Source: a candidate division WOR-3 bacterium (GTDB taxonomy: Bacteria > Hydrothermota > Hydrothermia > B15-G9 > WFZT01). Taken from it: DNA of 64,000 nucleotides. Position numbers and translations under genes: made by a program. The stretch's first letter is position 1. Every line of letters starts with the position of its first letter. The stretch is from contig JALUEE010000047.1 of assembly GCA_027053075.1 (NCBI GenBank), forward strand, positions 11,155 to 75,154, given 5' to 3'. This document shows positions 6,180 to 42,302 of this stretch, piece after piece. Below the pieces are notes generated by a model. It worked only from the letters and a program-made list of their open reading frames with translations, had not been told where the DNA came from and did no database searches.

Positions 6180-6251
6180 TGGACCCGGTGGGACTTGAAC
6201 CCACGACCTGGTGACTGCCAGTCACCCGCGCTCCCACTGCGCCACGGGCCC
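6180..6251 (-). tRNA. tRNA-Ala (anticodon GGC)
   Basis: The reverse complement folds as a tRNA with the G3:U70 alanine identity pair and anticodon loop CTGGCAG. Confidence 0.75.
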
Positions 6252-6257
6252 ACGAAA

Positions 6258-6330
6258 TGGGCCGTGCAGGACTCGAACCTGCGACCCCCTGATTAAAAAT
6301 CAGGTGCTCTACCACCTGAGCTAACGGCCC
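6258..6330 (-). tRNA. tRNA-Lys (anticodon TTT)
   Basis: The reverse complement is GGGCCGT...CCTGA-TTTTTAA-TCAGG...GCAGG-TTCGAGT-CCTGC-ACGGCCC-A. Confidence 0.8.
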
Positions 6331-7903: not shown

Positions 7904-7940
7904 AGCAGTAAGCGGATTATAGCTTAGAACCTGTGTCACT

Positions 7941-8429
7941 ATGAAAAAGATAGTGAGGATTATTGACCAGATTAACGAGTACATGGGGATTATTACGGGA
8001 CTCACTATTTTTATTCTCCTTGTACTCGCAACGTGGGGGGTCTTCTCAAGGTACGTCTTGAGAAGACCCAGCCATATCGCTCTCGAGATCAGCGGATATC
8101 TCATGGTTGCTATTACCTTCTTTGGCTCGGGCTACATCCTTCTAAAAAGTAAACACGTGAACGTACAGGTTCTCACATCCAGAATCAGAGGGAAATTTAA
8201 AAAAATCCATGATTTATCAGTTAACATTCTCTTGTTCTTGTTTGTCCTGCTCGTTATTTACGAAGGTTTTGGTTTCACTATTCTTGCTTACAAAGAACAC
8301 TACCGTTCAACAAGCCTGCTTAATTTCCCCATGTGGATTGTCTATCTCTCCATTCCAATCGGAATGATATTTCTTCTATTACAGATCATCAGGAACATAA
8401 TTGTGCTCCTTTCAGGAGAAGAATCATGA
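7941..8429 (+). CDS. dctQ: TRAP transporter small permease
   Basis: This is a 4-TM protein of 162 aa lying between dctP and dctM. Confidence 0.7.
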   Translation: MKKIVRIIDQINEYMGIITGLTIFILLVLATWGVFSRYVLRRPSHIALEISGYLMVAITFFGSGYILLKSKHVNVQVLTSRIRGKFKKIHDLSVNILLFLFVLLVIYEGFGFTILAYKEHYRSTSLLNFPMWIVYLSIPIGMIFLLLQIIRNIIVLLSGEES

Positions 8430-9730: not shown

Positions 9731-9744
9731 GTGGTTGGATGGGG

Positions 9745-10182
9745 TTAAAAATCAGCGCCTACTTCGGAGACAAATTGTAGCCAGAAATTGCGGTATTCTT
9801 CTGGAATGGTAACTACACGATTGTCCCTATCTACTGAGACGTGAATGGATTTACCGCGTGATAGAAGCTTTCCGTCCGAGGCTATCAAAACTTCGTAGTA
9901 AAAGATCACCTTCCGGGTCTTCACTTCCACAAGTCTTGTTCTAACAATCACTTCCTCGTCATAAACAGCCGGATGTTTGTACTGTGCACGAACTTCAACA
10001 ACGCTGAAAAAGTAGCCACTCTCTTCAATCTTGCTGTAAGGCATGCCAATCTTTCTTAAAAATTCAGATCTCCCTTCCTCAAACCAGACAATGTAAGAGG
10101 AATGATGGACAATCCTCATGGCATCTGTTTCGGCATATCTCACCCTGAATTTTGCATCAACGTAAAAATCTTTCATGCCCAA
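9745..10182 (-). CDS. acyl-CoA thioesterase, 4HBT/YbgC-like hotdog fold
   Basis: The protein is 145 aa and its N-terminal region (FRVRYAETDAMRIVHHSSYIVWFEEGR) is typical of YbgC/FadM hotdog proteins. Confidence 0.55.
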   Translation of the reverse strand: MGMKDFYVDAKFRVRYAETDAMRIVHHSSYIVWFEEGRSEFLRKIGMPYSKIEESGYFFSVVEVRAQYKHPAVYDEEVIVRTRLVEVKTRKVIFYYEVLIASDGKLLSRGKSIHVSVDRDNRVVTIPEEYRNFWLQFVSEVGADF

Positions 10183-10350
10183 AGTTTAATTTTAACCCCA
10201 GGGACTTGCAAATGATGGGATTGGCCTGGTCGAGCATTGTATAAAGCGGAGGGGGGCCCGCGCACGAAGTGCGCGGGCCCCCCACACAAAAACACTTGTG
10301 TTAATAACCGGGGTCATGTATTATTCTCTAACTTATTCGGGAGTGAGCCA

Positions 10351-12585
10351 ATGGCAAAAAACGGAAAGAAAAAGCTTTTAATCGTTGAATCGCCCACAAA
10401 GGCAAAAACTTTAAGCAAATATCTTGGCAGAAATTTTTCAGTAATTGCATCCAAAGGGCATATTCGCGATCTGCCGCCTAACCGCTTTGGAGTAAAAATT
10501 GACGAGGAAGGGTTCAAGCCCTCATACGTCATAATGAAAGAAAAGCGGGACGTGGTCAAAGAAATCAAGGAAGCCGCGAAAAAAGCCTCTGAAATCTACA
10601 TTGGAAGTGACCCTGACCGCGAAGGGGAGGCCATCGCCTATCACATTTCCCACATTATAAAAAGAATAAAGAAGCCAGAGGAAATTAAACGGGTTTTATT
10701 TTTTGAGATTACAAAGGATGCCGTAAAGGACGCCATCAAGCGCCCCGGAACTATTGACCTCAACAAATTCAACGCGCAACAGGCACGAAGAATTCTCGAT
10801 AGAATTGTCGGCTACAAGGTAAGTCCATTGCTCTGGAAATCGGTCAAAAAGGGACTCTCCGCAGGCCGTGTCCAGACCGTTGCCCTTCGATTCATCGTTG
10901 AAAGAGAAAAAGAAATACGCAACTTCAAGCCTGAAATTTACTACGTCGTAAAGGCTGTTTTCGAAAAGGATGGTGTTCAATTTACCGGAACACTCATAAA
11001 AGGCCCGGATGGCAAAAGTCTTCAAAAAATTAAGGACAAGAATCAGGCTGAAGAAATTGTAAAAAAGCTCAAAGAAGGCCTCTTCACGGTAGCAGAATTC
11101 TCAAAACGCACACGCAAGCAGACACCACCCCCTCCCTACAAAACCTCCACACTACAGCAGGATGCATCTTCAAAACTTGGATACGCGCCCAGGCGGACCA
11201 TGAAAATAGCTCAGGAGCTCTATGAGGGGGTTGATCTTGGTGGTGAAAGACGGGGATTGATTACTTACATGCGTACCGACTCACTCCGGATGTCTGAAAA
11301 GGCAATCGAAAAGATCAGGGAAATCATCAAGGAAAACTTTGGTGAGGAATTTCTCTCATCAAAGCCCCGTCAGTTTAAGTCAAAGGGGAGCGCTGTGCAG
11401 GGAGCACACGAGGCAATAAGGCCCACGGGATTCGATTTTCCTGAAAGTATCAGGAGCTTCTTAACCCGCGAGCAGCATTCCCTCTACAGCCTAATCTGGA
11501 AAAGGGCTGTCGCTTCACAGGCAAAAGAAGCCCAATTTGAGGTCCGGAAAGCTATTTTAGAAAACTCTGGCTACAGGTTTAAAGCAGAGGGTGAAACCCT
11601 GAAATTTGAAGGGTTTTATAAGATCACAGGGGAAAAGCCGAGAGAGGTGGAAATACCGGTGATGAAGGTTGGAGAGCAGGTCAAACTTGTGGACCTCAAG
11701 ATGGAGAAAAAGCAGACCGAGCCACCGAAACGATATACAGAGGCAACGCTCATAAAAACTCTTGAGGCAAAGGAAATTGGAAGACCATCCACCTATGCGC
11801 CTACCATTTCAACACTGTTTGAGCGCGGATACATTGAAAAAGACGGTAAATTCCTCAAACCCACAGAGCTCGGGGAGCTTGTCAACGACATTCTCATCCC
11901 GAGGTTCAAGGAAATCTTTGATTACGGTTTCACTGCGAAAATGGAGGACGAGCTCGATAAGGTGGAGCTTGGAGAGCTCTCCTGGCAGGACCTTTTGCGA
12001 GAATTTTACGATCACTTTAAAAAAGAATTTGAAAAGGCACAGGAAGACATTCCTGCCATCAAAAAAGAAAATGTCGAAGTTCTCGACGAAAAATGCCCTC
12101 TATGTGGCAGACCACTTGTTATAAGATGGGGCCGGTACGGAAAATTCATCGCATGCTCAGGGTATCCTGAATGCAAATACACGAGGCCACTTGAACAGGA
12201 GATTGTAGAAGGTGAAAAATGTCCTGTATGTGGGAAGCCTATGGTTATCAGAAAAGGAAAGTATGGCAGATTCCTCGCATGTATTGATTACCCCAAATGC
12301 CCTGGTGTGAAGCCGCTTTCAACAGGTGTAAAATGCCCCGAATGCGGCGGCGATATTGTAGAAAGGGTGAACAAGCGCGGGAAGGTCTTCTACGCCTGTT
12401 CCAACTATCCCAAATGTAAATTCACTTTACCTTACAAACCTGTACCTGTGGAGTGTCCCAATTGTGGCTATCCACTTTTAATGGAGGTACATCGCGGTAA
12501 AAAATTCTACTACCAGTGCCCTAATTGTAAAAAAACCTTCTCACCGAAAGAGATTGGCCTGAAATTAGAAAAATCCAAGAAGTAA
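10351..12585 (+). CDS. topA: DNA topoisomerase I with four C-terminal zinc ribbons
   Basis: A TOPRIM N-terminus (LLIVESPTKAKT) and multiple CxxC...CxxC repeats at the C-terminus are present. The ORF track starts at 10237, but that extension contains a stable hairpin, so the ATG at 10351 is preferred. Confidence 0.85.
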   Translation: MAKNGKKKLLIVESPTKAKTLSKYLGRNFSVIASKGHIRDLPPNRFGVKIDEEGFKPSYVIMKEKRDVVKEIKEAAKKASEIYIGSDPDREGEAIAYHISHIIKRIKKPEEIKRVLFFEITKDAVKDAIKRPGTIDLNKFNAQQARRILDRIVGYKVSPLLWKSVKKGLSAGRVQTVALRFIVEREKEIRNFKPEIYYVVKAVFEKDGVQFTGTLIKGPDGKSLQKIKDKNQAEEIVKKLKEGLFTVAEFSKRTRKQTPPPPYKTSTLQQDASSKLGYAPRRTMKIAQELYEGVDLGGERRGLITYMRTDSLRMSEKAIEKIREIIKENFGEEFLSSKPRQFKSKGSAVQGAHEAIRPTGFDFPESIRSFLTREQHSLYSLIWKRAVASQAKEAQFEVRKAILENSGYRFKAEGETLKFEGFYKITGEKPREVEIPVMKVGEQVKLVDLKMEKKQTEPPKRYTEATLIKTLEAKEIGRPSTYAPTISTLFERGYIEKDGKFLKPTELGELVNDILIPRFKEIFDYGFTAKMEDELDKVELGELSWQDLLREFYDHFKKEFEKAQEDIPAIKKENVEVLDEKCPLCGRPLVIRWGRYGKFIACSGYPECKYTRPLEQEIVEGEKCPVCGKPMVIRKGKYGRFLACIDYPKCPGVKPLSTGVKCPECGGDIVERVNKRGKVFYACSNYPKCKFTLPYKPVPVECPNCGYPLLMEVHRGKKFYYQCPNCKKTFSPKEIGLKLEKSKK

Positions 12586-22833: not shown

Positions 22834-23656
22834 GTAAAGATTTTACAAGCAAAATGTGTCTGAAAGCAAATTACAGATAATTGAGATCAGGGCTCATCAA
22901 TCTAAGTCGCACTTATTTGTGCAAGTTATTTCTACTCTCTACCATGCTAAATACTCATTCCAGGGATATGAGCATGAGGTTCTCTCGGGATTATAACATA
23001 GACATTCATCTTCTGCTTGCTTGGGTGTAAATCAATAACAACCAGGAACTTCTCTAAGCATAGTCTCCAGGGAGGTATAGATCGAATCGGAAGACGGGGG
23101 AGGATGTCTTATATTTCGCTGATTCTTGCATTTTGGCTTCATGTTCGCGTTTTGAGCTGTTTCAATACGTCTTTTATGAGTAAAAGGGAATAACACCGTA
23201 GGAAGAAATTCTTTAACTTCCTTAATAATTCTCCCGTTTGCGGCCTGAAAGATGAATCGAAGAGGTTGAAAATTCCCCCATGTTCTGCGCTCATCAGAGT
23301 TAGAGCTCTATTTCTGGGTCTTTGTAAACGTCTGGAGGTTCGTATGTTCCGGGGTCGTCAGAGTTGCCGAGCTTTTCCAGTTGTTTGTCTTGCATGTCGA
23401 GAATTTTCTTCTGTTCCCCTGATCGTTGATTATCCTTTTTCCACTTTCTCTGCAAGCGTTGTCCTGAAAAAAATGGTAATTGGAAAAACTGGTGAGCTCC
23501 CTCCCTCGCTTGCGAAGCAAACGGGCTCTTTTACGCTCAGAAACGTTGGTTGGGATAAGTTAGCGCCCCGCATTTCTCGAAATCTCATTCCGTAGAGGTG
23601 TTTGGATAAGTTAGCATTCTTCCCCGCCTGCAAAATAAGTAGGGGAGCTGCCTGAA

Positions 23657-23890
23657 TTAAATCCAGCTCTGCGTCATGAGCACGGGTATTTGTGAGAAAG
23701 TGGATTTCTGGGCACTAAGAATTAAATCAAGCTCTGTGACATAAGCACCATCCGCGAGAGAAGAGATTACATTCACGACCTTAAAGACAATAGGAATTAA
23801 ATCCAGCTCTATAACATAGTCACTTAAAAAACAACGCTGAGCTGGTTTTGAAAGAGCATGAATTAAAATCAGCTCTATAACACAGTCACC
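23657..23890. repeat. four degenerate ~30-bp direct repeats (GAATTAAATCCAGCTCT..N..CA.AG.CAC) with 35-45 bp non-conserved spacing
   Basis: Units begin near 23657, 23718, 23793 and 23860. It lies ~450 bp upstream of the CRISPR leader. Confidence 0.5.
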
Positions 23891-24349
23891 CTCCCGTGGT
23901 TTTTTTGGTAGAACCTTTTTCATAGGCTTTTTCATAGTCACCCTCCCCCACTTGCTCTGCAAGTGGAGGAGTAGTCCAGTTCCCACCTTCGAAACTAAGG
24001 AAGTTTCCCTCCCCCACTTGCCCTGCAAGTGGGGGAGGGCAAGGGAGGGGGCATTCCGCTTGAAAATTTTAAAAACTTAAGACGTTTATCTTCTTCCCCC
24101 TTGCGCAAGTAGGAATATTACTAACCTTTAAGTGACCAAAATTACTCCAACAAGTTTGGAAAAATTTTAAAAAGACACTGACATCGTCAACTACTATTAG
24201 TGGAATCCCAATCTTTTTACGACTAAAGTGTTGAAAATTCACGATTTCAATAAAAATTAAAGAGTTTTACCATCTTAGTGTCTAAATTTTATTTCCCTAC
24301 CAAAGCAAACTGCTTGCAGAATCAGCCACTTAAATTTATCATATATGTG

Positions 24350-25635
24350 TTCCGATCCTACCTACGAGGCATGGAAATTATCATCCACCTGAACGTCCCA
24401 TGAAGCAGAATCAAGTTCCGATCCTACCTACGAGGCATGGAAATGAAAAATTCGGAATCAATTGCCCTGTAAGTGAATTGTTCCGATCCTACCTACGAGG
24501 CATGGAAATATTGGCCTTGTTCCTGCAGAAAACATAAGAGTGTCTTTGTTCCGATCCTACCTACGAGGCATGGAAATTTGAGATTGAGAAGTAGCCGTCA
24601 GTAGTGGAGATAGGTTCCGATCCTACCTACGAGGCATGGAAATTCCCCATATTCAGCTCGATATAGTTTTTTCAATTCGTTCCGATCCTACCTACGAGGC
24701 ATGGAAATTACCTCCTTTTATTTTAATTATCCCTAAACCTAACGTTCCGATCCTACCTACGAGGCATGGAAATGCTTTGACTGATTGAGGTATGTGGAAA
24801 GTAAGTAAAGAGTTCCGATCCTACCTACGAGGCATGGAAATTTTTGTTTATAATCCCTTTCATAACATTTCTCCTCGTTCCGATCCTACCTACGAGGCAT
24901 GGAAATGCGATCTTCTCAGAGAAATACGGGAACTAAAAGAGGGTTCCGATCCTACCTACGAGGCATGGAAATGCAAAAGTCCCAGGTAATTGCCCTGGAG
25001 AATCCCTTGTTCCGATCCTACCTACGAGGCATGGAAATCTCCGTTGCCGGCTAATCCGAATGCAAGGGTATTGGTTCCGATCCTACCTACGAGGCATGGA
25101 AATTAGATATCGAGAAGATTCTGAGGCTTCCGGTGTATTGTTCCGATCCTACCTACGAGGCATGGAAATCATTTCTATTTTCTAACTTGGGTTTCACAAA
25201 TTTTTCCCGTTCCGATCCTACCTACGAGGCATGGAAATAAACCAATATCACCAAATCCTATATAATCATGACTTTCGTTCCGATCCTACCTACGAGGCAT
25301 GGAAATGAATAGACTATAAAAGCCCAGCCGTTTTGAGTTGGTGTTCCGATCCTACCTACGAGGCATGGAAATTATGTTTGGAAACATGAAATAAAATGGT
25401 ATAAGAGAGTTCCGATCCTACCTACGAGGCATGGAAATCCGGAAGACCCAGAAAAGATAAAGGAACTTGATGTAGTTCCGATCCTACCTACGAGGCATGG
25501 AAATACGGTTTTATCCACACCGTACACGGAGTTTGACAGGGTTCCGATCCTACCTACGAGGCATGGAAACTCCAATCCTCTTTTAAGACAAATACATACG
25601 GCAATGTTCCGATCCTACCTACGAGGCAAAAAATT
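24350..25635 (+). CRISPR. CRISPR array, 20 repeats of 30 bp (GTTCCGATCCTACCTACGAGGCATGGAAAT), 19 spacers of 34-39 bp
   Basis: - The period is exactly 65-69 bp.
- Repeat 19 ends in C instead of T.
- Repeat 20 is degenerate (..GAGGCAAAAAATT), which places the leader at the 24.1-24.35 kb AT-rich side and transcription on the + strand.
- The repeat starts GTTCC.AT like the P. furiosus type III/I repeats; the predicted 8-nt crRNA tag is AUGGAAAU. Confidence 0.95.
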
Positions 25636-31921: not shown

Positions 31922-31950
31922 GGGGGGCGCCTCCTTCGGAGGCGCCCCCT
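31922..31950 (+). terminator. intrinsic terminator GGGGGGCGCCTCC-TTCG-GGAGGCGCCCCC plus a T-run
   Basis: It lies between the convergent cytochrome gene and the TM-CARF gene. A canonical U-run follows on the + strand. Confidence 0.7.
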
Positions 31951-32017: not shown

Positions 32018-33040
32018 TTAATCAATGACAGGAATATCCATTTCAGTGACGTCAATTCTCACGAGACTTTTATCACCGGACTGTCTCACATACTCAGCCT
32101 GTCTATCTCCCACCACAGCCTCAAGAATCATTGCTGATGATACCATCGCGGTCCCACCGGTTATATTAAAACTAATATCGCTATCTTCATAATTTTTGAG
32201 ATTTTGCAGCAACCTATCTAATTCAATCTTAACGTCTCTGAAATCACTGACATCAACAACTCTGGACTTTTCTATGATCAAATCTCCCGTGGTAATTCTT
32301 TTTTCGAGATGTGGAATAACCTTCAGAAATTTTTCAAAATCAGCAAAATGTTCTTTTGCTTTCTCTGATAATATGACAATAACCCCTTCAAGAATGTGAT
32401 TTTCGTGTATAATTGCTCTCAACGCCGGTGTCCAGTTGCCGGGCAAGTCTTTTAAAGTTTCCTCTTTAGGTATTGCCGGGTTACCCAGTTGCCGTAATTT
32501 TTCTTGAAGAGATTGAATCTGTTCAAAGGGCTCACTGCTGGGCAAACTCAGTGCAAAGATAAGAACTTTTCTGGGGAGCGGTTTATCGTGGGCAGGTTTT
32601 TCTTTTGGCTCGAACAAACAATTGATGTATAGTAGAGGCAATAAAAACAGAAACAAGATTGCCAATATGAATGTCAGAATGTGATGCCAGAGTAAGCCCT
32701 TATTGTAATCCGGTGTTAAAACAAGTATCCCTGCATCCCTCACACTATCAAATACCCAGGAAATCTGGAATAAAACACTCAGGAAAATCCAGATGGACAG
32801 GTATCTATAAATTTTCTTTAACCCTTTTCGCGGTGGCTCTTTTAGAAAGTTACGAAGGGCATCTGTGAGGCCAATAGATTTGTCCTTATATTTATACATC
32901 AAGATGGTTATTGCTGAAATCAAAAGGATAATCAATAAAGTTTGGCCTAACGCCATAAAGGAGAGTATAAATGGGAAAACGCTTGAAAAGGCCAAAAGTG
33001 CAATTATGAACAGTATCTTTAAAAATTCCCTGAAGCTCAA
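32018..33040 (-). CDS. CRISPR-associated membrane protein: 4 N-terminal TM helices plus C-terminal CARF-like domain (Cam1-like architecture)
   Basis: TM helices lie at about residues 8-30, 33-49, 80-98 and 120-142. The C-terminal Rossmann-like domain has a beta1 motif KVLIFALSLPSSEP and the CARF signature NITGGTAMVSSAMILEA (compare DxTGGTK). It is the last gene of the cas operon and overlaps the upstream stop (ATGA). Confidence 0.5.
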   Translation of the reverse strand: MSFREFLKILFIIALLAFSSVFPFILSFMALGQTLLIILLISAITILMYKYKDKSIGLTDALRNFLKEPPRKGLKKIYRYLSIWIFLSVLFQISWVFDSVRDAGILVLTPDYNKGLLWHHILTFILAILFLFLLPLLYINCLFEPKEKPAHDKPLPRKVLIFALSLPSSEPFEQIQSLQEKLRQLGNPAIPKEETLKDLPGNWTPALRAIIHENHILEGVIVILSEKAKEHFADFEKFLKVIPHLEKRITTGDLIIEKSRVVDVSDFRDVKIELDRLLQNLKNYEDSDISFNITGGTAMVSSAMILEAVVGDRQAEYVRQSGDKSLVRIDVTEMDIPVID

Positions 33041-33042
33041 TT

Positions 33043-33429
33043 TTATATCCTTCTCATTTCTCTGAACTTTTCTCTGATGCTCTGGAGATTTATTATTTCT
33101 GCAACCTCAAATTTTGGAGGGGTAGAATTCGGAACCGGCTTCAATCTCACTACAGGTGGGAAATATCCCATCAAACCATGAAGTGCTGCAAGGAGGGTGA
33201 CAGCAATAAAATTAAAGGCTGGTGGAACTATTATAATCGGCCGTGTCTGCCACTCCTCAGGTGTCAGGTTACACGCCTCAATAAGATCTTTCACCTGCTC
33301 CTCAAAAGACTTTTCATTATCAAAAAACACTGGAATCTGCCTTATCTCCTCAATCTCCTCATCTATCAATTTCCTGATCTGCCCCACCTGCTCCTCAGTT
33401 AGTGGATGAGAAAAATTAAGCACGAGCAT
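33043..33429 (-). CDS. hypothetical 128-aa protein embedded in the type III cas operon
   Basis: It has no recognisable motif and is acidic at the N-terminus. It is translationally coupled to the TM-CARF gene. A 134-bp gap upstream could hold an internal promoter. Confidence 0.45.
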   Translation of the reverse strand: MLVLNFSHPLTEEQVGQIRKLIDEEIEEIRQIPVFFDNEKSFEEQVKDLIEACNLTPEEWQTRPIIIVPPAFNFIAVTLLAALHGLMGYFPPVVRLKPVPNSTPPKFEVAEIINLQSIREKFREMRRI

Positions 33430-33563: not shown

Positions 33564-34421
33564 TTATGATTTAATTGGTCGCCATAAACCATTATCCAAT
33601 ATTTCAAAGTAAACATCTTGATCGCTATCCACCTTTGTTCCTGGTTTCCAAGTCAAGCCTTGTGTATAAATACGCTGTAAGTACCTGCCCTCCAAAACTT
33701 CAAAATCTCCTTTAAATTTGAAGTGCGGGTCTGGCATTATATGACCAAATGCTATATTGGATTTTATGCGTGGATTTGTATGATTCAGTTCCACTTCGTA
33801 ATCCAAAAAACGAGAAGCTTCCGGATGTTTCACGAGTTCAATATGACCAAATCCGTAGCGGGTATCTGCTCCTACCATCAGTTTCTTTATTGAGAAAACT
33901 TGGTTTTGAACACTCTCATCGGCAATAAACACATACCCCACCATGAACATCTCGGGAGGTGGATAATGGTTACTAATTTGCCAATAAGGTTGAATGCACT
34001 CTAATTCGCGAAGTGTCCCTTCCTCAGCACTATCTGATTTGGGATCAATGGATGTGGAGGGAAACGAATACAGAATTTTTGATTTGAAGTCTCTGTTTGG
34101 CTTATCATCATTTGGAGTGTCTTCCCTTTTCCAAACGAGTCCATCAGAGTATTCTGAATACCACATAGCGTATTCATCGCCAATTTTTTCGGCTGGGAAC
34201 AGATAGGAAAATCGGACATTTTGTAGCAAATTTTCACCAATCGAAATATAATCCGGGAAACTACTTCCTGCCGTATCCCGTGATAACTCGGCTGTTAATG
34301 CTCCCCAAATTGTCCTTGCTGGTATGTATAAGCGGGTTCTGTTCAAAATTCCTGCTGGTGCCGTGCCGATATTTATGGGTGATTTTACCTTCCAGACCCA
34401 TCGGAACATCTTCCATGCCAT
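33564..34421 (-). CDS. cmr3: Cmr3-like (Cas5 group) subunit
   Basis: The N-terminal motif YIPARTIWGAL is present (compare IPGSS.kGAL), as is the G-rich loop GADTRYGFGHIE. Confidence 0.7.
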   Translation of the reverse strand: MAWKMFRWVWKVKSPINIGTAPAGILNRTRLYIPARTIWGALTAELSRDTAGSSFPDYISIGENLLQNVRFSYLFPAEKIGDEYAMWYSEYSDGLVWKREDTPNDDKPNRDFKSKILYSFPSTSIDPKSDSAEEGTLRELECIQPYWQISNHYPPPEMFMVGYVFIADESVQNQVFSIKKLMVGADTRYGFGHIELVKHPEASRFLDYEVELNHTNPRIKSNIAFGHIMPDPHFKFKGDFEVLEGRYLQRIYTQGLTWKPGTKVDSDQDVYFEILDNGLWRPIKS

Positions 34422-34427
34422 AATTTC

Positions 34428-34781
34428 TCACCCCTGTTTGGCCTTCAAGTGATAACGAGCATACGAGAATGCGGTGCGTAGAAGGTCTCGAGCAAAAAGT
34501 AAATCATCTAAATCTTTGGAGTTTGCTAAGAGCTTTATTGCTTCCAAAATATCGTCCGTAGTATCCAAGCGATTTCCGAAAATGGTCTTGAGAAATTGCA
34601 GAGATTCCGATCTAACCTCTTTAGCTACATTGTTATTCTTGGCCTTGAGATATAGAAACATCGCATACGGGCCTTGCTCTTCCAAAACAGTCAAGGCCTC
34701 GTTGACAAGATTTTCATCTATGCCAGAAATCTGGGCTATCTCACGGCCCAATTCGGCACACTGAATGTCCAAATTTTTCAT
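34428..34781 (-). CDS. cmr5: Cas11 small subunit (Cmr5-like)
   Basis: It is an alpha-helical protein of about 118 aa that follows cmr4. The MKNLDIQ start was chosen to avoid an 80-bp overlap with cmr4; the ORF-track start is 34904. Confidence 0.55.
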   Translation of the reverse strand: MKNLDIQCAELGREIAQISGIDENLVNEALTVLEEQGPYAMFLYLKAKNNNVAKEVRSESLQFLKTIFGNRLDTTDDILEAIKLLANSKDLDDLLFARDLLRTAFSYARYHLKAKQG

Positions 34782-34824
34782 TTGAGCTTCACTCACGGCT
34801 TTCCTCCTCGTTTGGTTCAGAGGC

Positions 34825-35856
34825 CTATGACGGATTAGATTGTCTCTGAGCGGGTTCAACGCAATCAATATCTTGGGTTCCGGGCGATTCATTCTCATGC
34901 ACAACTTCTACGCGTCCCATGCCTCGAGTGCCCATGCCGCCGATGCCCAAGTGTTTGAGATAGGGGTGAGCCTGGTGGGTTACCTCATGCACCCTTTCTG
35001 GAGAATACATTCGCTGACCACCATCCAGAATGACGCCTATCTCCTGTCCACCTATTCTAAAATGCTGAGGATTCTTTGCGATAATTTCCCACACCAGGAC
35101 CGTGGATCGAGGCAGGGCTTCGTAAGAGAAGAGAGCCCTTTCTTCGGCAGCACCAGTTTCGGGATTGATGGAAACCGAGGTGCGCACTTCCAAATTGCTG
35201 TTGACGATGTGGGCGAAGAGGCGGTCAGGCACCAAAGCAAGGCGGTTTTGGATGTAATCTGGGATACCCAGGCCTTGCAATTTAGTTTTAATATCATTCA
35301 TTTGGGCACACGCTTGCACAGGCAGCAATAACCAACCCAAGTTAAGAGGGTTGCCCGAGTTTGATTCAAGGTAAACGGCATTTTCCTCCACCCCCTGCAC
35401 ATTCAAACCTATAAAACGCAAGGTCTGAGGTGCAGTCACCCACATGGGGCCTTGACGGGTAGCGACAGGGAAGAGCAGCAAATGGACATCAGTAAAGGCG
35501 GCCAAGCCTGCAAAACCGCCTTCCTGCCCTGCACCACGGGCGAAACCAAAGACAGTGCAAACGGGACAGTCAGGTTGGCGACAATGCCCATGATCCGCAT
35601 CCAGCCCTAACCCGGCGCAATCGGGGTAAAAAGGTTTATCTCGGTTCGGAAATTGTGCTGTCCGATTTTCTTCAAAATACATCGCCACATAGGCCCGATA
35701 CACTCCAGCTAAGCTGGACCCAGGAATTTTAGGCACCTGGGTGACCGGGTCGCGCACAATAGTCAAATCTACCCGACCGATGCGGGTCCCACCGGTGCCC
35801 ACATGAATAGGGTCCAGAGCCAGACCAACCTGCAAGAATTTTTTGTAACTAGACAT
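34825..35856 (-). CDS. cmr4: Cas7 backbone subunit (Cmr4-like) with CxxC..CxxC insert
   Basis: The N-terminus is LALDPIHVGTGG...RDPVTQVPKIPGSSLAGVYR, followed by a zinc-finger-like segment CRQPDCPVCTVFG. Confidence 0.7.
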   Translation of the reverse strand: MSSYKKFLQVGLALDPIHVGTGGTRIGRVDLTIVRDPVTQVPKIPGSSLAGVYRAYVAMYFEENRTAQFPNRDKPFYPDCAGLGLDADHGHCRQPDCPVCTVFGFARGAGQEGGFAGLAAFTDVHLLLFPVATRQGPMWVTAPQTLRFIGLNVQGVEENAVYLESNSGNPLNLGWLLLPVQACAQMNDIKTKLQGLGIPDYIQNRLALVPDRLFAHIVNSNLEVRTSVSINPETGAAEERALFSYEALPRSTVLVWEIIAKNPQHFRIGGQEIGVILDGGQRMYSPERVHEVTHQAHPYLKHLGIGGMGTRGMGRVEVVHENESPGTQDIDCVEPAQRQSNPS

Positions 35857-35869: not shown

Positions 35870-38800
35870 TCAAACATTTTCTTTAAGGACTATTGTATGC
35901 CAATCTATCGCCCATTGGAGTAATCTCTGTTGGGCAGAGTCTATGAGGGTTTCAAGTGCTGTGCCCCTGACCTCTAAATGGTGCACAAGCATGGCACGGA
36001 GAGTATCTTCCCACAAATCTTTTGAAACGGCTCGTTGCCCCTCGGGTGTTTGCCATTCCTTTTCCAAACGCCCAAGTTCTGTTCTAAATCTCTGAAGAGC
36101 CGTTTGGCTTGGGACAACTTTCTTTAATAGGTTCCATATTTCGCGCATTTGCTCCCAATCTTCCAAGTAATGTAAATCTGGGTTAGAGAAGCGAGCGGAG
36201 GTGCTTCCCATGAAGAGGATGGTTACACGCGCTGTGGATACTTTTACACCATCACCTGGACGAAGGTCCGATACATGACGGTAAACACGGCCATCCTTTG
36301 GATGGCGAAAATCTCGGGGAAAACGAAGTTGTCGATCCTCAATTACCATGTAAGGATAGAACACATCATCTCGCCCATCAGGCATAGCAGTAGGCACTAT
36401 CTTTAAGATGCTCTTGCCGTCTTCCAGTTTTAAGCGGAGGACTACCACACCTGCTTGTCGTTCCACTTCTTCCACCTGCCATGTTTCCTCCTCTCCTTTC
36501 AGTTCTTCTTCCATTTTACGTGTTGCTCCGATCACGGCCTGATAGGGCAACATTCGAGGGAATGCGACCACGCCTATCCGTAAAGGAAGCCGATCCCACA
36601 CGCGGGAGAAGTGTTCCTTCCACCAGGAAACAGCTATATCCACACATTCGGAGGCCGCTTCCAATGGCACCAGCACCCGAAAACGAAGTGGAGAGACTTC
36701 TACCGGAATGACCGGGTGATACAAGCTCAAGTGCGCATGAGGCTGACGCAGCTCATTCACATGGGTAACAGTCATAGGACGCTCCTGACCAAAGGTATCT
36801 TCTTCTTCCAGCCTAATTTGAGCACCCTGAAAGGAACTCGATTGCTCTTCTGGCCGTAGCAATCTACCCAGATTGGAAGCCGTCACAAAACCTCCCAGGC
36901 TACGCACATAGACCAGGCTAATCTGCCGACCTTCCCAACGGCCATTGTAAAGGGTCAGGTCTCGCCAATCGTTATTGTCGTCTGGAACCAACACCAAGCG
37001 TCGGACACGCCAGCAATTTTCGCTGCGAGCCGCTATCTGCCGAAATTCCTTCAGCAAGTCATGGAAGAACTCCTCGGCCTCCCGCCAGAAGCGATAGACA
37101 CGGCCAGGTGAGGGAAGCTTGCGGAAGAGTTGATGCGCAAGCCAAGCAGCTCGCTGGTCGTCATTCAAGATACCCCATGTAGGTGCATCGGTACGATCCT
37201 CTACAATTTTACGGAAAAAAGTTGGCCAGTCATTTTCATACTTGTAACCCTCTTGAAGGTTGGCAAGCAATTGGTCGTTTTTATCGAATTTAAAATGCTG
37301 TGGATTTTGTGGATCGCGAAACCTTTGTTTTAGCTCGTCAATCAGCTTATCCATAGAGCCTGTGGGGGCAATAGGATTAGGTTGACCTGAAAGGACCAGG
37401 TTAAATCTCACCCACTCCGGTATTGCTTGTACCCGCAGGCTATCCACACGGCTGCCATTGAGCCAATCTTCAAGGTCCAGTGAGAATGTTAGCAAAGCCA
37501 GGCGGCCGTTGCGGTCAGCCACCTCCTCGAACCAGATGGTGTCGTAATCCAGTTGCCCCTGAAGCCATGCATCTCTTCGATGGTGGCGCCGCTCGCGGCA
37601 TACCGCGCATGGCTTACCCTTGTTGGTGGGATCACCGTTTAGTCGCACACGGCAGACGGGACACACATGACCACGCGTCTCTGAAGGAGCCCTCCAATGA
37701 ACATCCCACTGCTTGTGAACAGGGACGGCCACTACCAGCTTGGACTCTTTAAGCTCCCTAACAATGGGTACCAATGAACGGGTCGGCTTACTCAGGCGCA
37801 CAAAGGGCGGGGTTTCCAGTTCCAGATTACGGGCGATTTCTTCTACTTGATCTTGGAGCCATCCATTCCATCCTCGGAGCCGGGATGCGAAGTTCTCTTC
37901 ATCAAACTCAAAATTCGGATCTCTCCGTCTTTGACGTTCCTGTTCTTCTTCATCGAATCTCTCGCCGGGAAAAGAAAACACGGCCATGCTGCTGTCTCGA
38001 TAAAGCAAAGAGCCTGCAGCAATGTCCACCTCCACCAATTCAGCTACACGACGGAAAAATTCGTCAATGGCACCTTGAGCACCTGTCCAGTCACCAATTT
38101 TTACCGCGCGGGCTTCGTAGTGCTCGGTCCCAAGGGCGATAGTGAGCAGGCGCCAGCGGGTATTGCTTTTGGTAAAATTATTGATAGCCAATTTCTCATC
38201 TTTCGATAGGTCATCGAAGGACTTCTCTTTTCCTTTCTTTGTTCTAAGGTTTATACCCAATTTGGTAGCTATGCTCTTCCAGTTCCAAGGAAAACCCTTA
38301 TCGAGCAACGCCCCAGCCACCGCGCTCTTAAATAGAGCCGCAGCCACATAGGACTGGTCCCACAAGGTAACATCGTTGTTGGGCAAACGCGTCTCGGCTA
38401 AGGTGGACATAAAAGCTCTTCGGACAAAAGATTTTTCTCCGATAGCTCTATTCCGCCAGTCTTGCCAATGAGCTACATCTGACACACCTCTGGTTCCTAA
38501 GTCCCGCAACTCCTCCAAAACTCGCCGGATTTCTCCCACCAATTGCTGCCAGCCCTGTGGAGTCAATAGTTCAGGTGGATTGGCCAGCAGGTTACGCTTT
38601 GGGTGGCCCCAAGGTGAGGAAAGCCACATGTGAGGAATGGTTTGCTTAAGATAATCTGAGGTAGAAGTAGGAAGGTTTTTCTCGACGCCAGAGACAATAC
38701 CATGTCCTGCTTGGAGTAATCCCAAAAGACCAGGGTTACGTCCTGCATGTTGTTCAATAAACGTAGAAAAAGAACCTGGCCATGCATTATTGGGTATTCC

Positions 38801-39028
38801 ACTCCCGTATAGCCGTTTTACCCATTCTAATAAGGTATCCCATGGAAAAGGTGGCGTTTCCAAATCATGCCAATGTCGTTCATCGTAGCCGTTGTTCTCG
38901 CCACCATGACGGCGTAAAAATTCAATTCGTGCCTTTCCAGCCATGTGAAACCACCCAATGGCCTCCATTGCTAAGAGTAAAGGGCGATGTTGCCGTAAAG
39001 TCTCAGCCGGTGAGAAAGTGCTGCTCAT
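35870..39028 (-). CDS. cas10: Cas10 large subunit: HD-like N-terminus, treble-clef Zn finger, palm domains without a GGDD cyclase motif
   Basis: - It is ~1050 aa.
- There is a possible HD motif (H..RHWHD).
- The zinc finger is CPVCRVRLNGDPTNKGKPCAVCRER.
- The palm beta1-like segment is LALLTFSLDLEDW.
- No GGDD/GGDE/GDD occurs anywhere in the protein.
- A start at 39028 gives a 4-bp overlap with the cmr6 stop. Confidence 0.65.
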   Translation of the reverse strand: MSSTFSPAETLRQHRPLLLAMEAIGWFHMAGKARIEFLRRHGGENNGYDERHWHDLETPPFPWDTLLEWVKRLYGSGIPNNAWPGSFSTFIEQHAGRNPGLLGLLQAGHGIVSGVEKNLPTSTSDYLKQTIPHMWLSSPWGHPKRNLLANPPELLTPQGWQQLVGEIRRVLEELRDLGTRGVSDVAHWQDWRNRAIGEKSFVRRAFMSTLAETRLPNNDVTLWDQSYVAAALFKSAVAGALLDKGFPWNWKSIATKLGINLRTKKGKEKSFDDLSKDEKLAINNFTKSNTRWRLLTIALGTEHYEARAVKIGDWTGAQGAIDEFFRRVAELVEVDIAAGSLLYRDSSMAVFSFPGERFDEEEQERQRRRDPNFEFDEENFASRLRGWNGWLQDQVEEIARNLELETPPFVRLSKPTRSLVPIVRELKESKLVVAVPVHKQWDVHWRAPSETRGHVCPVCRVRLNGDPTNKGKPCAVCRERRHHRRDAWLQGQLDYDTIWFEEVADRNGRLALLTFSLDLEDWLNGSRVDSLRVQAIPEWVRFNLVLSGQPNPIAPTGSMDKLIDELKQRFRDPQNPQHFKFDKNDQLLANLQEGYKYENDWPTFFRKIVEDRTDAPTWGILNDDQRAAWLAHQLFRKLPSPGRVYRFWREAEEFFHDLLKEFRQIAARSENCWRVRRLVLVPDDNNDWRDLTLYNGRWEGRQISLVYVRSLGGFVTASNLGRLLRPEEQSSSFQGAQIRLEEEDTFGQERPMTVTHVNELRQPHAHLSLYHPVIPVEVSPLRFRVLVPLEAASECVDIAVSWWKEHFSRVWDRLPLRIGVVAFPRMLPYQAVIGATRKMEEELKGEEETWQVEEVERQAGVVVLRLKLEDGKSILKIVPTAMPDGRDDVFYPYMVIEDRQLRFPRDFRHPKDGRVYRHVSDLRPGDGVKVSTARVTILFMGSTSARFSNPDLHYLEDWEQMREIWNLLKKVVPSQTALQRFRTELGRLEKEWQTPEGQRAVSKDLWEDTLRAMLVHHLEVRGTALETLIDSAQQRLLQWAIDWHTIVLKENV

Positions 39029-40044
39029 GGCGTACCTCCTTTGGTTAGCCAGTTTTGAACTTCCTGCCAGAGTTCGTCGCGAGTATCCTTTTCCACGCTG
39101 CCATGAGTTTTGTGGAAAGCGCGCCACTTTTTGATTTCCGCTGTGCCCCAGCCCACAGTGCGCTTGGCGGAGATCCCATAGGGAGTAAGCAAAGTTTCAA
39201 TAGCTTCAAGCAGTTTTGGGAGTACATCCACAGGTTTTGCCTCTGGCTCCATACCGGGCCAGGGCGCGTAAAGTAATGAAAGTGTTCCTTCGGCTCCCTC
39301 AACTTCCTCTCTTTCTTGGGTTCCATCAGACTTTTTCTTCACCTGTATCGTCCGTCCAGGAACCACTTCATAGTAAATAGGTTGGGTGCCAGCGCGATTG
39401 GTACGACTATGTGGGTTGATGACCTCGAAGCCGATCTTGTTGAACCACGTGGGGTAGAAGACCAGAGCGCCCTGGTGGAAGTTTTTCTCTTCCTTCTTCT
39501 CGTTACCAAAGAGATGCTGAATCCAGTCCGGATCCCACCAGCCATCTATTTTGCCATTGTGTTGTTCCAGATATTCCATCAGTCCTTCGTGCATTCTACA
39601 GGCCCATCGCAGCATGCCTTTACAAGAGGAAGCCGCCATAAATGGCACGCCAAAGACCCGGTCTTTACGCACAGGGTTGTCCATCACATGGAAAATTCGG
39701 TCATCACGGGAATACCAGGGAGTGAGTAGTTCAAAATCCACCTGAAGAGCAAGCCAACGATCAGATAATAGCGTGGAAAAGTCAATTTGTAGTCCTGGAT
39801 ACAACTTGACCGGGAATCTCCGAGGCACTTTTCCCATGTATTCCTTACGGAGCCTCGTTTTCTCCCGCTCCGCCTGACGTTTTCCCTGTCTGTCATTTGT
39901 CTTTTCCGCTTCTAATCGCTTGATTTCAGTCTTCAAGAAGCATTTGAAAATATGATCGATAAAACCTCCGGCCAGCCTCCAAGCCACCGGAGTGTTTTCC
40001 AATGGTTCGCAAGTCTCAAGAAAGATGAAGTAATCCCAAGTCAT
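39025..40044 (-). CDS. cmr6: Cas7 family subunit (Cmr6-like)
   Basis: Motifs GVPFMAASSCKGMLRW and HLFGNEKKEEKNFHQGALVFYPTWF are present, with a C-terminal G-rich loop GWGTAEI. Confidence 0.65.
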   Translation of the reverse strand: MTWDYFIFLETCEPLENTPVAWRLAGGFIDHIFKCFLKTEIKRLEAEKTNDRQGKRQAEREKTRLRKEYMGKVPRRFPVKLYPGLQIDFSTLLSDRWLALQVDFELLTPWYSRDDRIFHVMDNPVRKDRVFGVPFMAASSCKGMLRWACRMHEGLMEYLEQHNGKIDGWWDPDWIQHLFGNEKKEEKNFHQGALVFYPTWFNKIGFEVINPHSRTNRAGTQPIYYEVVPGRTIQVKKKSDGTQEREEVEGAEGTLSLLYAPWPGMEPEAKPVDVLPKLLEAIETLLTPYGISAKRTVGWGTAEIKKWRAFHKTHGSVEKDTRDELWQEVQNWLTKGGTP

Positions 40045-41267
40045 GAATTTTCCTCCTGTTTGAACAATCGTTCCATAATTTGCTCTCCTGTAATGAAATC
40101 CTCATTCGGATTAAAGTCCTGCCAAATTTGCCCCAAGCGGCGCTTCATTTCTTCAAAATCCACTAAACCCGGCTTCACAAAGCCAAAGGTGCGGCGTGCT
40201 TCTTCTGGATGTTCGAAACTGAACACTTTTTTGCTTACCTGTTGACTACCCGCAAGCCAGTGATTAACCTCGTTATCTCGCCAGAAGTTCTGCGCTTGGT
40301 TCTTCCGCATATTCCTTCCAATGACAAGATTATATGTACTTTTGGTGAACGATTGCCTTGCCAGATACCGTCCTTTCACGAACCAGAAGTTTTGCAACGA
40401 GGCCCAGGCAAAATCTTGGTCGTTAAAGCTCTTTCGCCACCGTTCCTGTTTTACATATGCTTCTGCTTGCTGCAGAGTGCAGCCAACTCCTTGAGGCCGC
40501 TCCTCAACCGTGATGAGCCCGAAATCCTGATGGTGTCTCTTTCCGGCCCAAGCATTGATCTCCCGAGTTTCATTGTCCCTTCGCACTTTGATTTTGAGAG
40601 GTTCACCATGCGGTTTTCCACTAAGGAGGTTTTCAAGGTCAAGAAGACGAGTCACCAATGTGCTATCAACTTCCAGGATTACATCGCCTTCTTGTAACTG
40701 GAGCCCCCGCCGACTGTGTCGCACTTTTATCTGCCCGCTTGAATCGTCCAGATCATCGGCGCCAAGATCAGCGATTCCCCATTCATCTGACGGCTTGAAC
40801 ACCGTTTTCCCACCCAAGGCCCCGTATTCGGCAATAAGGTGGATGGTTGCATCCAGCAGACACCATTCTTCTGGATGAATAGGTCGCAAAGGGATGAAGC
40901 GTAGGATAAAAATATTACTCCCGTTGTCGTCATTATCTACCTTGATCTGATTTTGGATGACCTTTTTTCCATATTTGTCCACCACCATAAGCCGGAACTT
41001 GCGTGCCCAACCAGTGCAACCGAAAAGTTCACAAACCACGCAATGGTGGCCAGGTTCATGTGGCTGTTTGTTAGGAGCTGGGCAACGAATTTCCGACGCC
41101 GTCGGGTCACAAGCCTTCCCACCCAATCCTCGAACTAACACCTCGAACCACCAGCGAAGTGAACCCATTATACCGGTCAAGATCGTTCTTTCCCCACGCC
41201 TTGAAGCATCCCCTGTGAATATCGGGGTTAGCGCTTTTAACTTCCATTCCTCCCATTCTTTACTCAT
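40041..41267 (-). CDS. cmr1: Cmr1-like RAMP (Cas7 group) with Zn finger and an inserted PDZ-like domain
   Basis: - The RAMP N-terminus is LTPIFTGDA...GSLRWWFEVLVRG.
- The zinc finger is CPAPN..HHCVVCELFGCTGW.
- The first G-rich loop is GALGGKT.
- Residues ~165-240, GLQLQEGDVILEVDSTLVTRLLDLENLLSGKPHGEPLKIKVRRD, align with the PDZ core (GL.aGDvI..vnG..v.s...l...l.....G..l.l.v.R). Confidence 0.6.
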   Translation of the reverse strand: MSKEWEEWKLKALTPIFTGDASRRGERTILTGIMGSLRWWFEVLVRGLGGKACDPTASEIRCPAPNKQPHEPGHHCVVCELFGCTGWARKFRLMVVDKYGKKVIQNQIKVDNDDNGSNIFILRFIPLRPIHPEEWCLLDATIHLIAEYGALGGKTVFKPSDEWGIADLGADDLDDSSGQIKVRHSRRGLQLQEGDVILEVDSTLVTRLLDLENLLSGKPHGEPLKIKVRRDNETREINAWAGKRHHQDFGLITVEERPQGVGCTLQQAEAYVKQERWRKSFNDQDFAWASLQNFWFVKGRYLARQSFTKSTYNLVIGRNMRKNQAQNFWRDNEVNHWLAGSQQVSKKVFSFEHPEEARRTFGFVKPGLVDFEEMKRRLGQIWQDFNPNEDFITGEQIMERLFKQEENS

Positions 41268-41506
41268 TAGGATATCTCCATTTTTAAAATAACCTGTAAG
41301 GACAAGAGAATAACGGTTTCATCAGGAAATAAGCATTTCGGGTATAGGGAATCATGGCTGTAGAAATTCAAGAGATAAAAAGTCTCTGTGAACCAGAATC
41401 TCATTGCGCCTCTTATCGAGGCGGGGCGGAGTTCGGGCTCACCCTCTGGGTCAGCTCCGCCCATAAACATTGGGGTTAAGACTTTTAGTTTGAAGGTGGT
41501 TTTCAT
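41267..41506 (-). pseudogene. 79-aa ORF consisting of a Cmr1-type RAMP N-terminal motif followed by unrelated sequence; probable duplicated/decayed cmr1 fragment
   Basis: The first half of LTPMFMGGADPEGEPELRPASIRGAMRFWF is a textbook Cmr1 N-terminus. No continuation exists in any frame. It has its own GGAGG RBS, and its stop overlaps the start of the full-length cmr1. Confidence 0.45.
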
Positions 41507-41543: not shown

Positions 41544-42302
41544 TTAATCCTTATTTCTCACCACTTCGATCATGCCGAAGCCCTGGCTGTTTTTGGCTCC
41601 CAGGCCCGCATTGTAAGCAAGCATAAACCAGGGCTCGGGCAGGCTTAATTCATATATTCCTACCCAACCCTTAACAATGACGCCTTTAAACTTCGTTATT
41701 ATCTCGTTGTGCTTCTTAACCTTTACGGGCTTTATATACCCCTCAATTGGTGGGATGTCGTTTTTGGAGAAGTAAGCTTTGGCCTTGCGACGGAGGTTAT
41801 CAAAGATCAATTCTTCAAATTCTTTCTCGAAGGGACTAAAGTAATAGGTCTTTCTCTGTCCATCGGACGTGTATAAAGTTCGATAAACTGTTATCGGAGA
41901 GATTGCTTTAATTTTCATAGGTCCCGAGAGTTTGAAAGGTCTCTCAACCTCAATTGATACGAGATTGCATTTAGCTGAGCCGATTCTTACCACCCCTTCC
42001 TTAACCAGTGTAGCTGCGAAAGATTCGAGAATCTCAATATCAACAGATGAAATCTTAAACCAAACTCGCCCCTCAAAAATCAGCTTTTTGCTTATCGGAT
42101 CATACCTTCTATTTTCACCGAAGAGTCTTGAGAAGGTGTATAACTTGAATCTTCTCTTTCCAAATTGGTAGCCTTCATCATGTACCCATTCAGCGAGCTT
42201 CTCTTTGATGTTGTTGAGGATAAAACTCTGGATGATGTGGTTGTAATTGACGGAGATTCTAAGGATTCCGTTCTCTGGCTCAAATTTTACAATTAATCTC
42301 AA
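41544..42302 (-). CDS. cas6: Cas6 pre-crRNA endoribonuclease
   Basis: The C-terminal G-rich loop is GLGAKNSQGFGMIE, and the size (252 aa) fits. It uses a TTG start with an AGGAGG RBS. It is the first gene of the operon, below a 340-bp AT-rich promoter region. Confidence 0.85.
   Translation of the reverse strand: MRLIVKFEPENGILRISVNYNHIIQSFILNNIKEKLAEWVHDEGYQFGKRRFKLYTFSRLFGENRRYDPISKKLIFEGRVWFKISSVDIEILESFAATLVKEGVVRIGSAKCNLVSIEVERPFKLSGPMKIKAISPITVYRTLYTSDGQRKTYYFSPFEKEFEELIFDNLRRKAKAYFSKNDIPPIEGYIKPVKVKKHNEIITKFKGVIVKGWVGIYELSLPEPWFMLAYNAGLGAKNSQGFGMIEVVRNKD

Follow-up and report, generated by a model that had tools for sequence, protein, structure and literature searches.

The 64-kb window analysed here (64,000 nucleotides from a metagenome-assembled genome, MAG, of a candidate division WOR-3 bacterium) carries a type III-C CRISPR-Cas operon with a csx11 (cas10c) gene at 35870..39028 on the minus strand, encoding the large subunit of the effector complex. 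We propose that this Csx11 is devoid of both canonical Cas10 catalytic sites, the palm-2 cyclase site and the HD nuclease site, within a complete III-C effector, and that the accessory pair downstream, consisting of Csx15 and a membrane CARF protein, is served in trans. This reading is considered probable. The evidence consists of the residues found at the homologues of the GGDD and HD motifs, the fixation of these residues in a large clade, and a paralogous accessory pair beside a type III-B locus assigned to the same MAG.

Csx11 and its palm-2 hairpin

The open reading frame (ORF) encodes Csx11/Cas10c, which is the large subunit in a type III-C, Cmr-like effector with a complete set of subunits. 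The protein matches the NCBIfam equivalog model TIGR02682 over its full length and above the cut-off (285.3 bits versus 248.95; residues 11-1037 on positions 6-996 of the 1007 in the model), and the PADLOC Cas10c model (CAS-III-C LS) at 5e-115; no Pfam family was matched by the full protein at E <= 0.1. It is identical to the protein deposited for the MAG, and is an ordinary member of a known family, for which an indexed search retrieved 661 clusters at 90% identity and an exhaustive search 1124 clusters at 50% identity (E <= 1e-3). Identity to Csx11 of Thermus, Ammonifex, Rhodothermus, Brockia, Chloroflexi and archaea ranges from 55 to 81%. An earlier reading of the sequence alone had called the gene a III-C-type Cas10 without a cyclase motif, which agrees with both family models and with the residues Ser-Pro-Leu-Arg (SPLR) at the GGDD position described below.

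The longest minus-strand ORF (35870-39127) has a GTG start and encodes 1085 residues, with ATG 39028 internal to it. This ATG is preceded at 7 nt by AAAGGAGG, a Shine-Dalgarno sequence, and overlaps the stop codon of the upstream gene as ATGA; in the public gene call for the identical MAG contig, csx11 also has 1052 residues. Translation probably starts at ATG 39028, giving 1052 residues and leaving the extension up to the GTG at 39127 untranslated; residues are numbered accordingly throughout. The sequence-only reading thus had the coordinates of the ATG version, and its figure of 1085 residues belongs to the GTG ORF. It had also reported the strings GGDD, GGDE, GDD and GGD to be missing, and a scan of both the 1085- and the 1052-residue versions gave the same result. 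The published cyclase variants AGDD, SGDD, GGED, KGDD and others (list taken from PMC11229360) are likewise absent from both versions. By our own estimate, the chance expectation of such a four-residue string in a protein of this size is about 0.02, so that absence is predicted anyway and proves nothing by itself. The scan becomes evidence only once the homologous position has been located.

A profile of the Csx11 family searched against all PDB chains gave chance matches only (E > 0.5), and a residue mapping could therefore not be taken from a solved relative. The mapping was obtained instead by hhalign comparison with a Cmr2 family of 28 members, seeded with TTHB160 of T. thermophilus HB8, and from an AlphaFold2 model built from 29 homologues (pLDDT 68, pTM 0.70), the C-terminal half of which is good. 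Among PDB entries, the best Foldseek matches of the model are Cas10/Cmr2 chains, namely A. fulgidus Cmr2 (9x25_B, E 3.5e-4), and 9arw_A and 3w2v_A at a probability of 0.99-1.0. With a shallow Csx11 alignment, hhalign gave a local match of residues 755-845 to Cmr2 362-449 at a probability below 1%. With an alignment of 62 sequences derived from genome loci, the match became colinear, placing Csx11 293-1030 on Cmr2 3-580. Its core (Csx11 780-845 to TtCmr2 380-448) has a score of 36.3 and an E-value of 0.004; the reversed controls scored 23-26 and the ten column-shuffled ones 13-17.

In this alignment the Cmr2 segment VYaGGDDvLALLPLH...sPTLSVGIAV corresponds to LYHPVIPVEVSPLRFRVLVPLE...DRLPLRIGVVAF of Csx11. 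The palm-2 beta2-beta3 hairpin could thereby be located at residues 770-788 (Y770-HPVIPVEV-S779-P-L-R782-FRVLVP788; 36665..36721, minus strand), and the beta4 strand at D812-R-L-P-L-R-I-G-V-V-A-F823 (36560..36595, minus strand), which matches sPTLSVGIAV of Cmr2. The model has a strand-turn-strand at 774-788, a helix at 789-806, a strand at 816-824 and a second helix at 829-843. We accept the match despite its low hhalign probability because the anchors align, their spacing is nearly equal in the two proteins (35 versus 33 residues) and the modelled secondary structure agrees. As placed by alignment and model, the position of GGDD is occupied by S779-P-L-R782 (36683-36694, minus strand), without an acidic pair. 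Aligning the protein to Cas10 structures so as to locate the hairpin had been named as a check by the sequence-only reading; the comparison with Cmr2 provides that location. Loss of cyclic oligoadenylate (cOA) synthesis, which had been predicted from the missing strings, would be the expected consequence of the residues found at this position.

The SPLR turn is not peculiar to the window protein. Residues P772, S779, P780, R782 and R784 are invariant in 29 close homologues, and RLPLxxG is conserved across 118 full-length representatives of the wider superfamily. Neither a GGDD-like motif nor an acidic pair was present at the hairpin column in the 62 locus-derived homologues or in the 118 representatives, and wherever the hairpin motif could be matched in the latter, the turn has the form [S/E/T]-P-x-x, without any GGDD variant. 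In Csx11 the hairpin thus carries neither GGDD nor a variant of it, and the beta1 strand, which colinear hhalign places at about 701-712 (QISLVYVRSLGG), is likewise without Asp.

Several other candidates for a cyclase site were considered and rejected. A KGDD string in eight homologues falls within a variable loop around reference position 741 and is not conserved; the window protein reads LEEEDT there. GGDD strings in three superfamily proteins (P0290, P0349 and P0380) occur at non-homologous places. Within the window protein, S640-P-G-R643 forms a turn between two helices in the model and is placed in the D2 region by hhalign, and P883-D-G-R-D-D-V-F-Y is located inside a beta-rich insert downstream of palm-2 beta4.

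The overall Cas10 architecture is kept, running from an HD-like helical domain at the N-terminus through palm-1, which bears a zinc finger, and a helical D2 domain to palm-2 and a helical D4 domain; Csx11 thus combines the Cas10 fold and zinc finger with a palm-2 hairpin devoid of GGDD. The finger is of the treble-clef type proposed by the sequence-only reading (C456-x2-C459 ... C474-x2-C477; 37586..37669, minus strand), and its four Cys residues are invariant in 29 homologues. About 30 residues past it lies the strand LALLTFSLDLEDW (residues 510-522; 37463..37501, minus strand; modelled strand 509-517), which had been taken for a palm beta1-like DxD segment. The segment is present, but its assignment to palm-2 beta1 is doubtful: the supposed DxD is actually D518-L-E520-D521, the strand is not aligned to beta1 of Cmr2 palm-2 by colinear hhalign, and D518, while invariant in close homologues, is replaced by G, E, H or N in about 13 of the 62 clade members and varies through the superfamily. 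More likely, LALLTFSLDLEDW is the last strand of palm-1, although the domain assignment is uncertain.

Between palm-2 and the D4 domain, a beta-rich insert was observed (residues ~847-940; 36209..36490, minus strand), with invariant PDGRxDVFYPY and RPGDG motifs and modelled strands at pLDDT 75-93. In Foldseek it matches Mop/ModE molybdate-binding barrels (probability 0.95-1.0 over 85-120 columns). We know of no counterpart of this insert in Cmr2 or Csm1.

The N-terminal HD-like domain

At the equivalent of HD motif I, the N-terminus reads EAIGWFH28M29AGKA, with Met in place of the dyad Asp (G25-W-F-H28-M29-A-G-K32; 38933..38956, minus strand). H28 and M29 are both invariant in 29 close homologues, and GW[FL]HM is found in nearly all clade members from 80 loci. 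At the same place, HD-bearing Cas10c relatives have E(I/V)GALLHD(I/L/M)GK, or also (A/G)LLHD(I/L/M)GK, and the III-B Cas10 of the same MAG has FFHDPIHK. A second HD-domain motif, N217-N-D-V-T-L-W-D224-Q225 (38354..38380, minus strand), differs from its HD-bearing relatives in the same sense: these read NDVTLWD-H-S, versus NDVTLWD-Q225-S here, with Gln replacing His throughout the clade.

The two substitutions go together. Among the 118 superfamily representatives, 25 combine the HD dyad with WDH and 12 combine it with WDW; HM or HL occurs with WDQ in 16 and with WDH in none. Co-variation of motif I (HD versus HM, HL or HN) with the residue after NDVTLWD was also noted through the superfamily proteins P0247-P0395. 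Since HD to HM and WDH to WDQ change together, the canonical metal site appears to be gone in the HM/WDQ clade, and the pattern suggests one or more coordinated losses of this site within type III-C. It agrees with a survey in which an HD domain was recognisable in only about half of the III-C loci (PMC11229360).

The sequence-only reading had supposed that HD DNase activity may be kept, and had named inspection of the catalytic His and Asp residues as a check. That inspection does not support the supposition: with H28-M29 (in 29 of 29 close homologues) and WDQ225, the dyad Asp is Met and the partner His is Gln. Judged by its motifs, the HM/WDQ clade thus lacks both canonical catalytic sites of Cas10. 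This is an old, selected state rather than a recent decay, because the motif states are fixed across the clade within a very strongly conserved sequence.

One alternative is that the HD-like domain is still a nuclease with altered ligands, H28, H109, E116, H133, D219 and D224, by which DNA would be degraded. These residues are invariant or nearly so, a recognisable HD domain is reported for about half of the III-C systems, as cited above, and HD-bearing Cas10c relatives exist: of the 118 representatives scanned, the motif could be matched in 82, and 48 of these are HD-bearing. However, both the dyad Asp and the His of WDH are replaced in the clade, they co-vary as a coordinated loss of the metal site would predict, and the Pfam HD model has no match in Csx11. 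Mutants of the Cas10 HD dyad are generally nuclease-dead, which also counts against this alternative, and we consider it unlikely.

The effector operon, the accessory pair and proposed signalling in trans

Csx11 is surrounded by all the partners of a type III-C effector, encoded on the minus strand in the order cas6, cmr1, cmr6, cas10c, cmr4, cmr5, cmr3, followed by csx15 and the membrane CARF gene. The cas6 gene (41544..42302) was identified with TIGR01877 (1e-36) and Pfam Cas_Cas6_C (2e-32), the cmr1-like RAMP gene with a PDZ insert (40041..41267) with TIGR01894 (4e-16), Pfam RAMPs (5e-21) and PDZ_2 (1e-7), and the cmr6-like RAMP gene (39025..40044) with PADLOC Cmr6 (2e-62). Downstream of csx11 are cmr4, encoding the backbone RNase subunit (34825..35856; TIGR02580 above cut-off, 1.5e-32), which contains the N-terminal motif G-R-V-D29 (G-x-V-D29); cmr5, encoding the III-C small subunit of 122 residues (34428..34796; PADLOC Cmr5 CAS-III-C SS, 4.6e-30, and gene call); and the Cas5-like cmr3 (33564..34421; PADLOC Cmr3, 7e-73). 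The order cmr1-cmr6-csx11-cmr4-cmr5-cmr3 was seen in about 60 of the 80 genome loci, being conserved in every case where the contig has sufficient length. Beside the crRNA-processing enzyme Cas6, a presumed source of CRISPR RNA (crRNA) is found 16 kb away, in the form of a CRISPR array (24349..25633) with 20 near-perfect copies of the 30-nt repeat GTTCCGATCCTACCTACGAGGCATGGAAAT and spacers of about 35-39 nt.

The accessory pair starts 134 nt downstream of cmr3. Its first gene, csx15 (33043..33429, minus strand; NF040560, 2e-49), belongs to a family described as cyclic tetra-adenylate (cA4)-binding ring nucleases or sponges (PMC13148439; 10.1101/2024.09.24.614671). The second (32018..33040, minus strand) encodes a 340-residue protein with hydrophobic N-terminal segments, read from the sequence as about four transmembrane (TM) helices, and a C-terminal CARF domain, identified with the PADLOC models CARF_2M (1.4e-23) and CARF8--CARF_TM (1e-18); Pfam and NCBIfam matches are below cut-off. 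It is a predicted cOA sensor, and the CARF-type gene that the sequence-only reading had seen in the operon is therefore real. Between this gene and a convergent cytochrome gene, a strong hairpin of 13 bp, rich in G+C and flanked on either side by T tracts (31922-31950), is likely a bidirectional terminator.

The pair is rare beside Csx11. Among about 57 Csx11 loci with sequence downstream of cmr3, a Csx15 homologue was found in only one (L009, right after cmr3) and a convincing TM-CARF homologue in none. The G+C content of the Csx15/TM-CARF region is 0.39, versus 0.46-0.51 for the cas core. The TM-CARF family itself (CARF8-TM) comprises only six clusters in 5.8 billion proteins. In all three homologue loci examined, as in the window, the TM-CARF gene is preceded by a gene for 127-128 residues in the csx15 position, confirmed as a Csx15 paralogue in L085 only. 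The same two-gene module thus recurs at 32018-33429 (minus strand) of the window, L084:291-1753, L085:9613-11065 and L086:538-1990, and may represent an uncharacterised membrane effector that is gated by cA4 and carries its own off-switch.

One MAG contains this module twice, in diverged copies. The TM-CARF paralogue P0243 (49% identity) is encoded in the same MAG (GCA_015489415.1) on contig WFZT01000153 (locus L085), beside a Csx15 paralogue that is 70.6% identical to that of the window. This locus (1-11065) has the order cmr1, a 946-residue Cas10/Cmr2, cmr3, cmr4, cmr5, cmr6, two Card1-type CARF genes, csx15 and TM-CARF, with four putative cOA-responsive genes (CARF_Card1 protein, Card1-like nuclease, Csx15 and TM-CARF). 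Its III-B Cas10 reads FFHD, AVDGDHMG and IIYAGGDDILAF, with HD and GGDD both intact. No GGDD-type Cas10 was found within 10 kb of the 80 Csx11 loci or in the window, and the repeat of the window array is absent from the fetched piece of the III-B contig.

The apparent paradox of a CARF gene beside a cyclase-less III-C effector thus has a plain explanation, since the pair is rare beside Csx11, differs by its lower G+C content and has a paralogous copy at the III-B locus. Supply of cOA in trans from the III-B system is the likeliest account of the accessory pair; a role in trans has also been invoked for ring nucleases in effector-less loci (10.1101/2024.09.24.614671). We therefore propose the following mechanism. 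The III-C complex would make no cOA and would have no canonical HD DNase activity; transcripts complementary to the crRNA would be bound by it and, as Cmr4 has the catalytic-Asp motif G-R-V-D29, cut through this subunit, with Cas10c serving as scaffold and target-sensing subunit. The Csx15/membrane-CARF pair would be an accessory module of separate origin, responding most likely to cA4 from the HD- and GGDD-intact III-B Cas10 on the other contig of the MAG.

Alternatively, Cas10c could keep a non-canonical catalytic centre, in palm-2 or in the N-terminal domain, the product of which is sensed in cis by Csx15 and the membrane CARF protein. Such a function would fit the position of a CARF effector and a cOA-binding Csx15 immediately downstream, not separated by any terminator-like site, as well as the Csx15 homologue of L009, the very strong conservation of Cas10c and the acidic and His residues that have stayed invariant around the two former sites. 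In contrast, there is no acidic pair at the GGDD column or the candidate beta1 column, about 55 of the 57 loci with downstream sequence lack the accessory pair, the G+C content of the pair departs from that of the cas core, its paralogue sits at a cyclase-competent III-B locus of the same MAG, and surveys report no effectors with III-C (PMC11229360). Although we judge signalling in cis to be improbable, it is retained as an alternative because a role of Cas10c as scaffold and sensor leaves its exceptional conservation unaccounted for. We see a similarly small chance that the HM/WDQ Cas10c is not a dead scaffold but has acquired a new activity or ligand site, at the six N-terminal residues named above (H28 to D224) or in the palm-2/beta-barrel region, and that capture of Csx15/membrane-CARF reflects a real coupling, e.g. 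the sensing or relaying of III-B cA4.

Several observations weigh against a Csx11 that acts as scaffold only, served by a III-B system in trans. Mean column identity across phyla is 62% in 29 homologues, with long invariant runs in the N-terminal domain, which a scaffold alone would not evidently require. Invariant acidic or His residues are found near the former palm-2 site (E777, E790, D812, D884 and D888) as well as near the former HD site (H28, H109, E116, H133, D219 and D224). Concerning the residue mapping, the hhalign probability to Cmr2 is only 8-12%, weak in absolute terms, residue equivalences other than R782-D382 and those of the RLPLxxG strand may be off by a few positions, and the AlphaFold2 model is mediocre, with a poor N-terminal half. 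The link between the III-B locus and the window consists of MAG binning only (same assembly accession; G+C content 0.427 versus 0.443). Finally, no terminator-like site was found between cmr3 and csx15, so that co-transcription with the III-C genes is possible.

That the locus is a decaying remnant, with the missing motifs due to pseudogenisation, is highly improbable: a fragment resembling the Cmr1 N-terminus upstream of cmr1, the 16-kb distance of the array, the lack of cas1 and cas2 among the annotated ORFs of the window, and an insertion-disrupted III-C locus in a Thermus plasmid might point that way, but none of the seven cas ORFs is broken and their starts overlap or are tightly spaced, the 20 repeats of the array are near-perfect, and the motif states are common to hundreds of homologues under strong constraint.

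The fragment just mentioned is a 79-residue ORF (41267-41506, minus strand) between cas6 and cmr1, which opens with a sequence resembling the Cmr1 N-terminus (MKTTFKLKVLTPMFMGGADPEGEPELRPASIRGAMRFWF), beyond which the similarity is lost; a partial cmr1 duplication has probably left it behind. The PDZ domain of the Cmr1-like RAMP occupies residues ~190-238 (PDZ_2, with weaker HtrA/SpoIVB-type matches), and could mark a protein or peptide partner. The full insert is found in only about 12 of 61 Csx11 loci, and to our knowledge no PDZ domain has been described in a type III RAMP subunit.

Upstream of the array, at 23640-24050, two short families of degenerate direct repeats were noted, one spaced by about 66-75 nt (GAATTAAATCCAGCTCT...) and the other reading CCCTCCCCCACTTGC(T/C)CTGCAAGTGG(A/G)GG; they are possibly a leader region or the remains of a degenerate array. 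The 16 kb between array and cas6 include genes for a histidine kinase, a sigma-54 response regulator and a multihaem cytochrome, and the rest of the window consists of chromosomal housekeeping genes (topA, rsmB, metG, argG, mutS and mreB). Elsewhere, Csx11 loci are often found in defence islands (loci L009, L011, L018, L024, L025 and others; L002, L003, L012, L027, L030 and L061), with Cas3g-type helicase-nucleases (12 loci) and Hma helicase-methylase-ATPase systems (about 8-10 loci) as neighbours. On the T. thermophilus HB5018 plasmid NZ_AP024271 (L083), the III-C locus is broken by IS3- and IS701-family insertion sequences (IS), and Csx11 is annotated as two hypothetical proteins.

Comparison with known systems

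The absence of a cyclase site in Csx11 mainly re-discovers the defining trait of type III-C, as the sequence-only reading had itself remarked, and its value is confirmatory. The Csx11 subfamily was described in 2011 as an 'inactivated Cas10 (Csx11 subfamily)' (PMC3150331), III-C loci were again reported in 2024 to lack cyclase sites, and also to lack known effectors (PMC11229360), and very few ring nucleases occur in III-C loci (10.1101/2024.09.24.614671). No III-C structure was found among the PDB chains searched, and no III-C biochemistry in the literature searched. The present analysis adds, incrementally, the mapping of SPLR to the GGDD position, the co-variation of HM with WDQ, and the paralogous accessory modules beside III-B and III-C. 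Although the HM/WDQ clade has neither canonical catalytic motif, it belongs to the most conserved lineages of Cas10. In this genome, a III-C system without a cyclase and a cyclase-competent III-B system, each with a paralogous Csx15/membrane-CARF pair, provide a natural setting in which possible signalling in trans between co-resident systems could be examined, and the pair of Csx15 and a four-TM CARF protein is a rare candidate membrane effector module.

Compared with other Csx11/Cas10c proteins (TIGR02682, MTH326-like systems), nothing essential differs in the window protein itself: the full-length match, the operon order, the retained zinc finger and the lost palm-2 cyclase motif are all shared. 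What the window locus adds to most Csx11 loci is the downstream Csx15/membrane-CARF pair and the PDZ insert of Cmr1, each of them a minority feature. The HD-bearing Cas10c relatives, together with type III-F Cas10 (HD present, cyclase absent), also have no GGDD at the hairpin, and the former share NDVTLWD, SGxDK/SGxEK, the zinc finger and the RLPLxLG motif with the window protein. These relatives keep LHD(I/L/M)GK and WDH, whereas the clade of the window has HM and WDQ and would thus be without both canonical activities.

With III-B Cas10/Cmr2 (TTHB160, P. furiosus Cmr2 and the III-B Cas10 of the same MAG), Csx11 has in common the domain order, the fold and the partners Cmr1 and Cmr3-6. The palm-2 elements can be aligned, VLALLPLH of Cmr2 with FRVLVPLE of Csx11 and PTLSVG with RLPLRIG. 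In Csx11, however, GGDD is replaced by SPLR and HD by HM, the aligned position does not have the DGD of beta1, about 95 residues are added as a beta-rich insert, and no PDB chain or Pfam Cas10 model is matched at the sequence level. Finally, the accessory pair resembles Cam1, Cap1, Csx23 and the ring nucleases in combining TM helices, a CARF domain and Csx15 in a cA4-gated layout (PMC12642688; PMC13148439). It differs from Cam1, Cap1 and Csx23 in that its TM-CARF protein, with a predicted ligand and function, belongs to the rare, uncharacterised CARF8-TM family and is encoded beside a cyclase-less Cas10.

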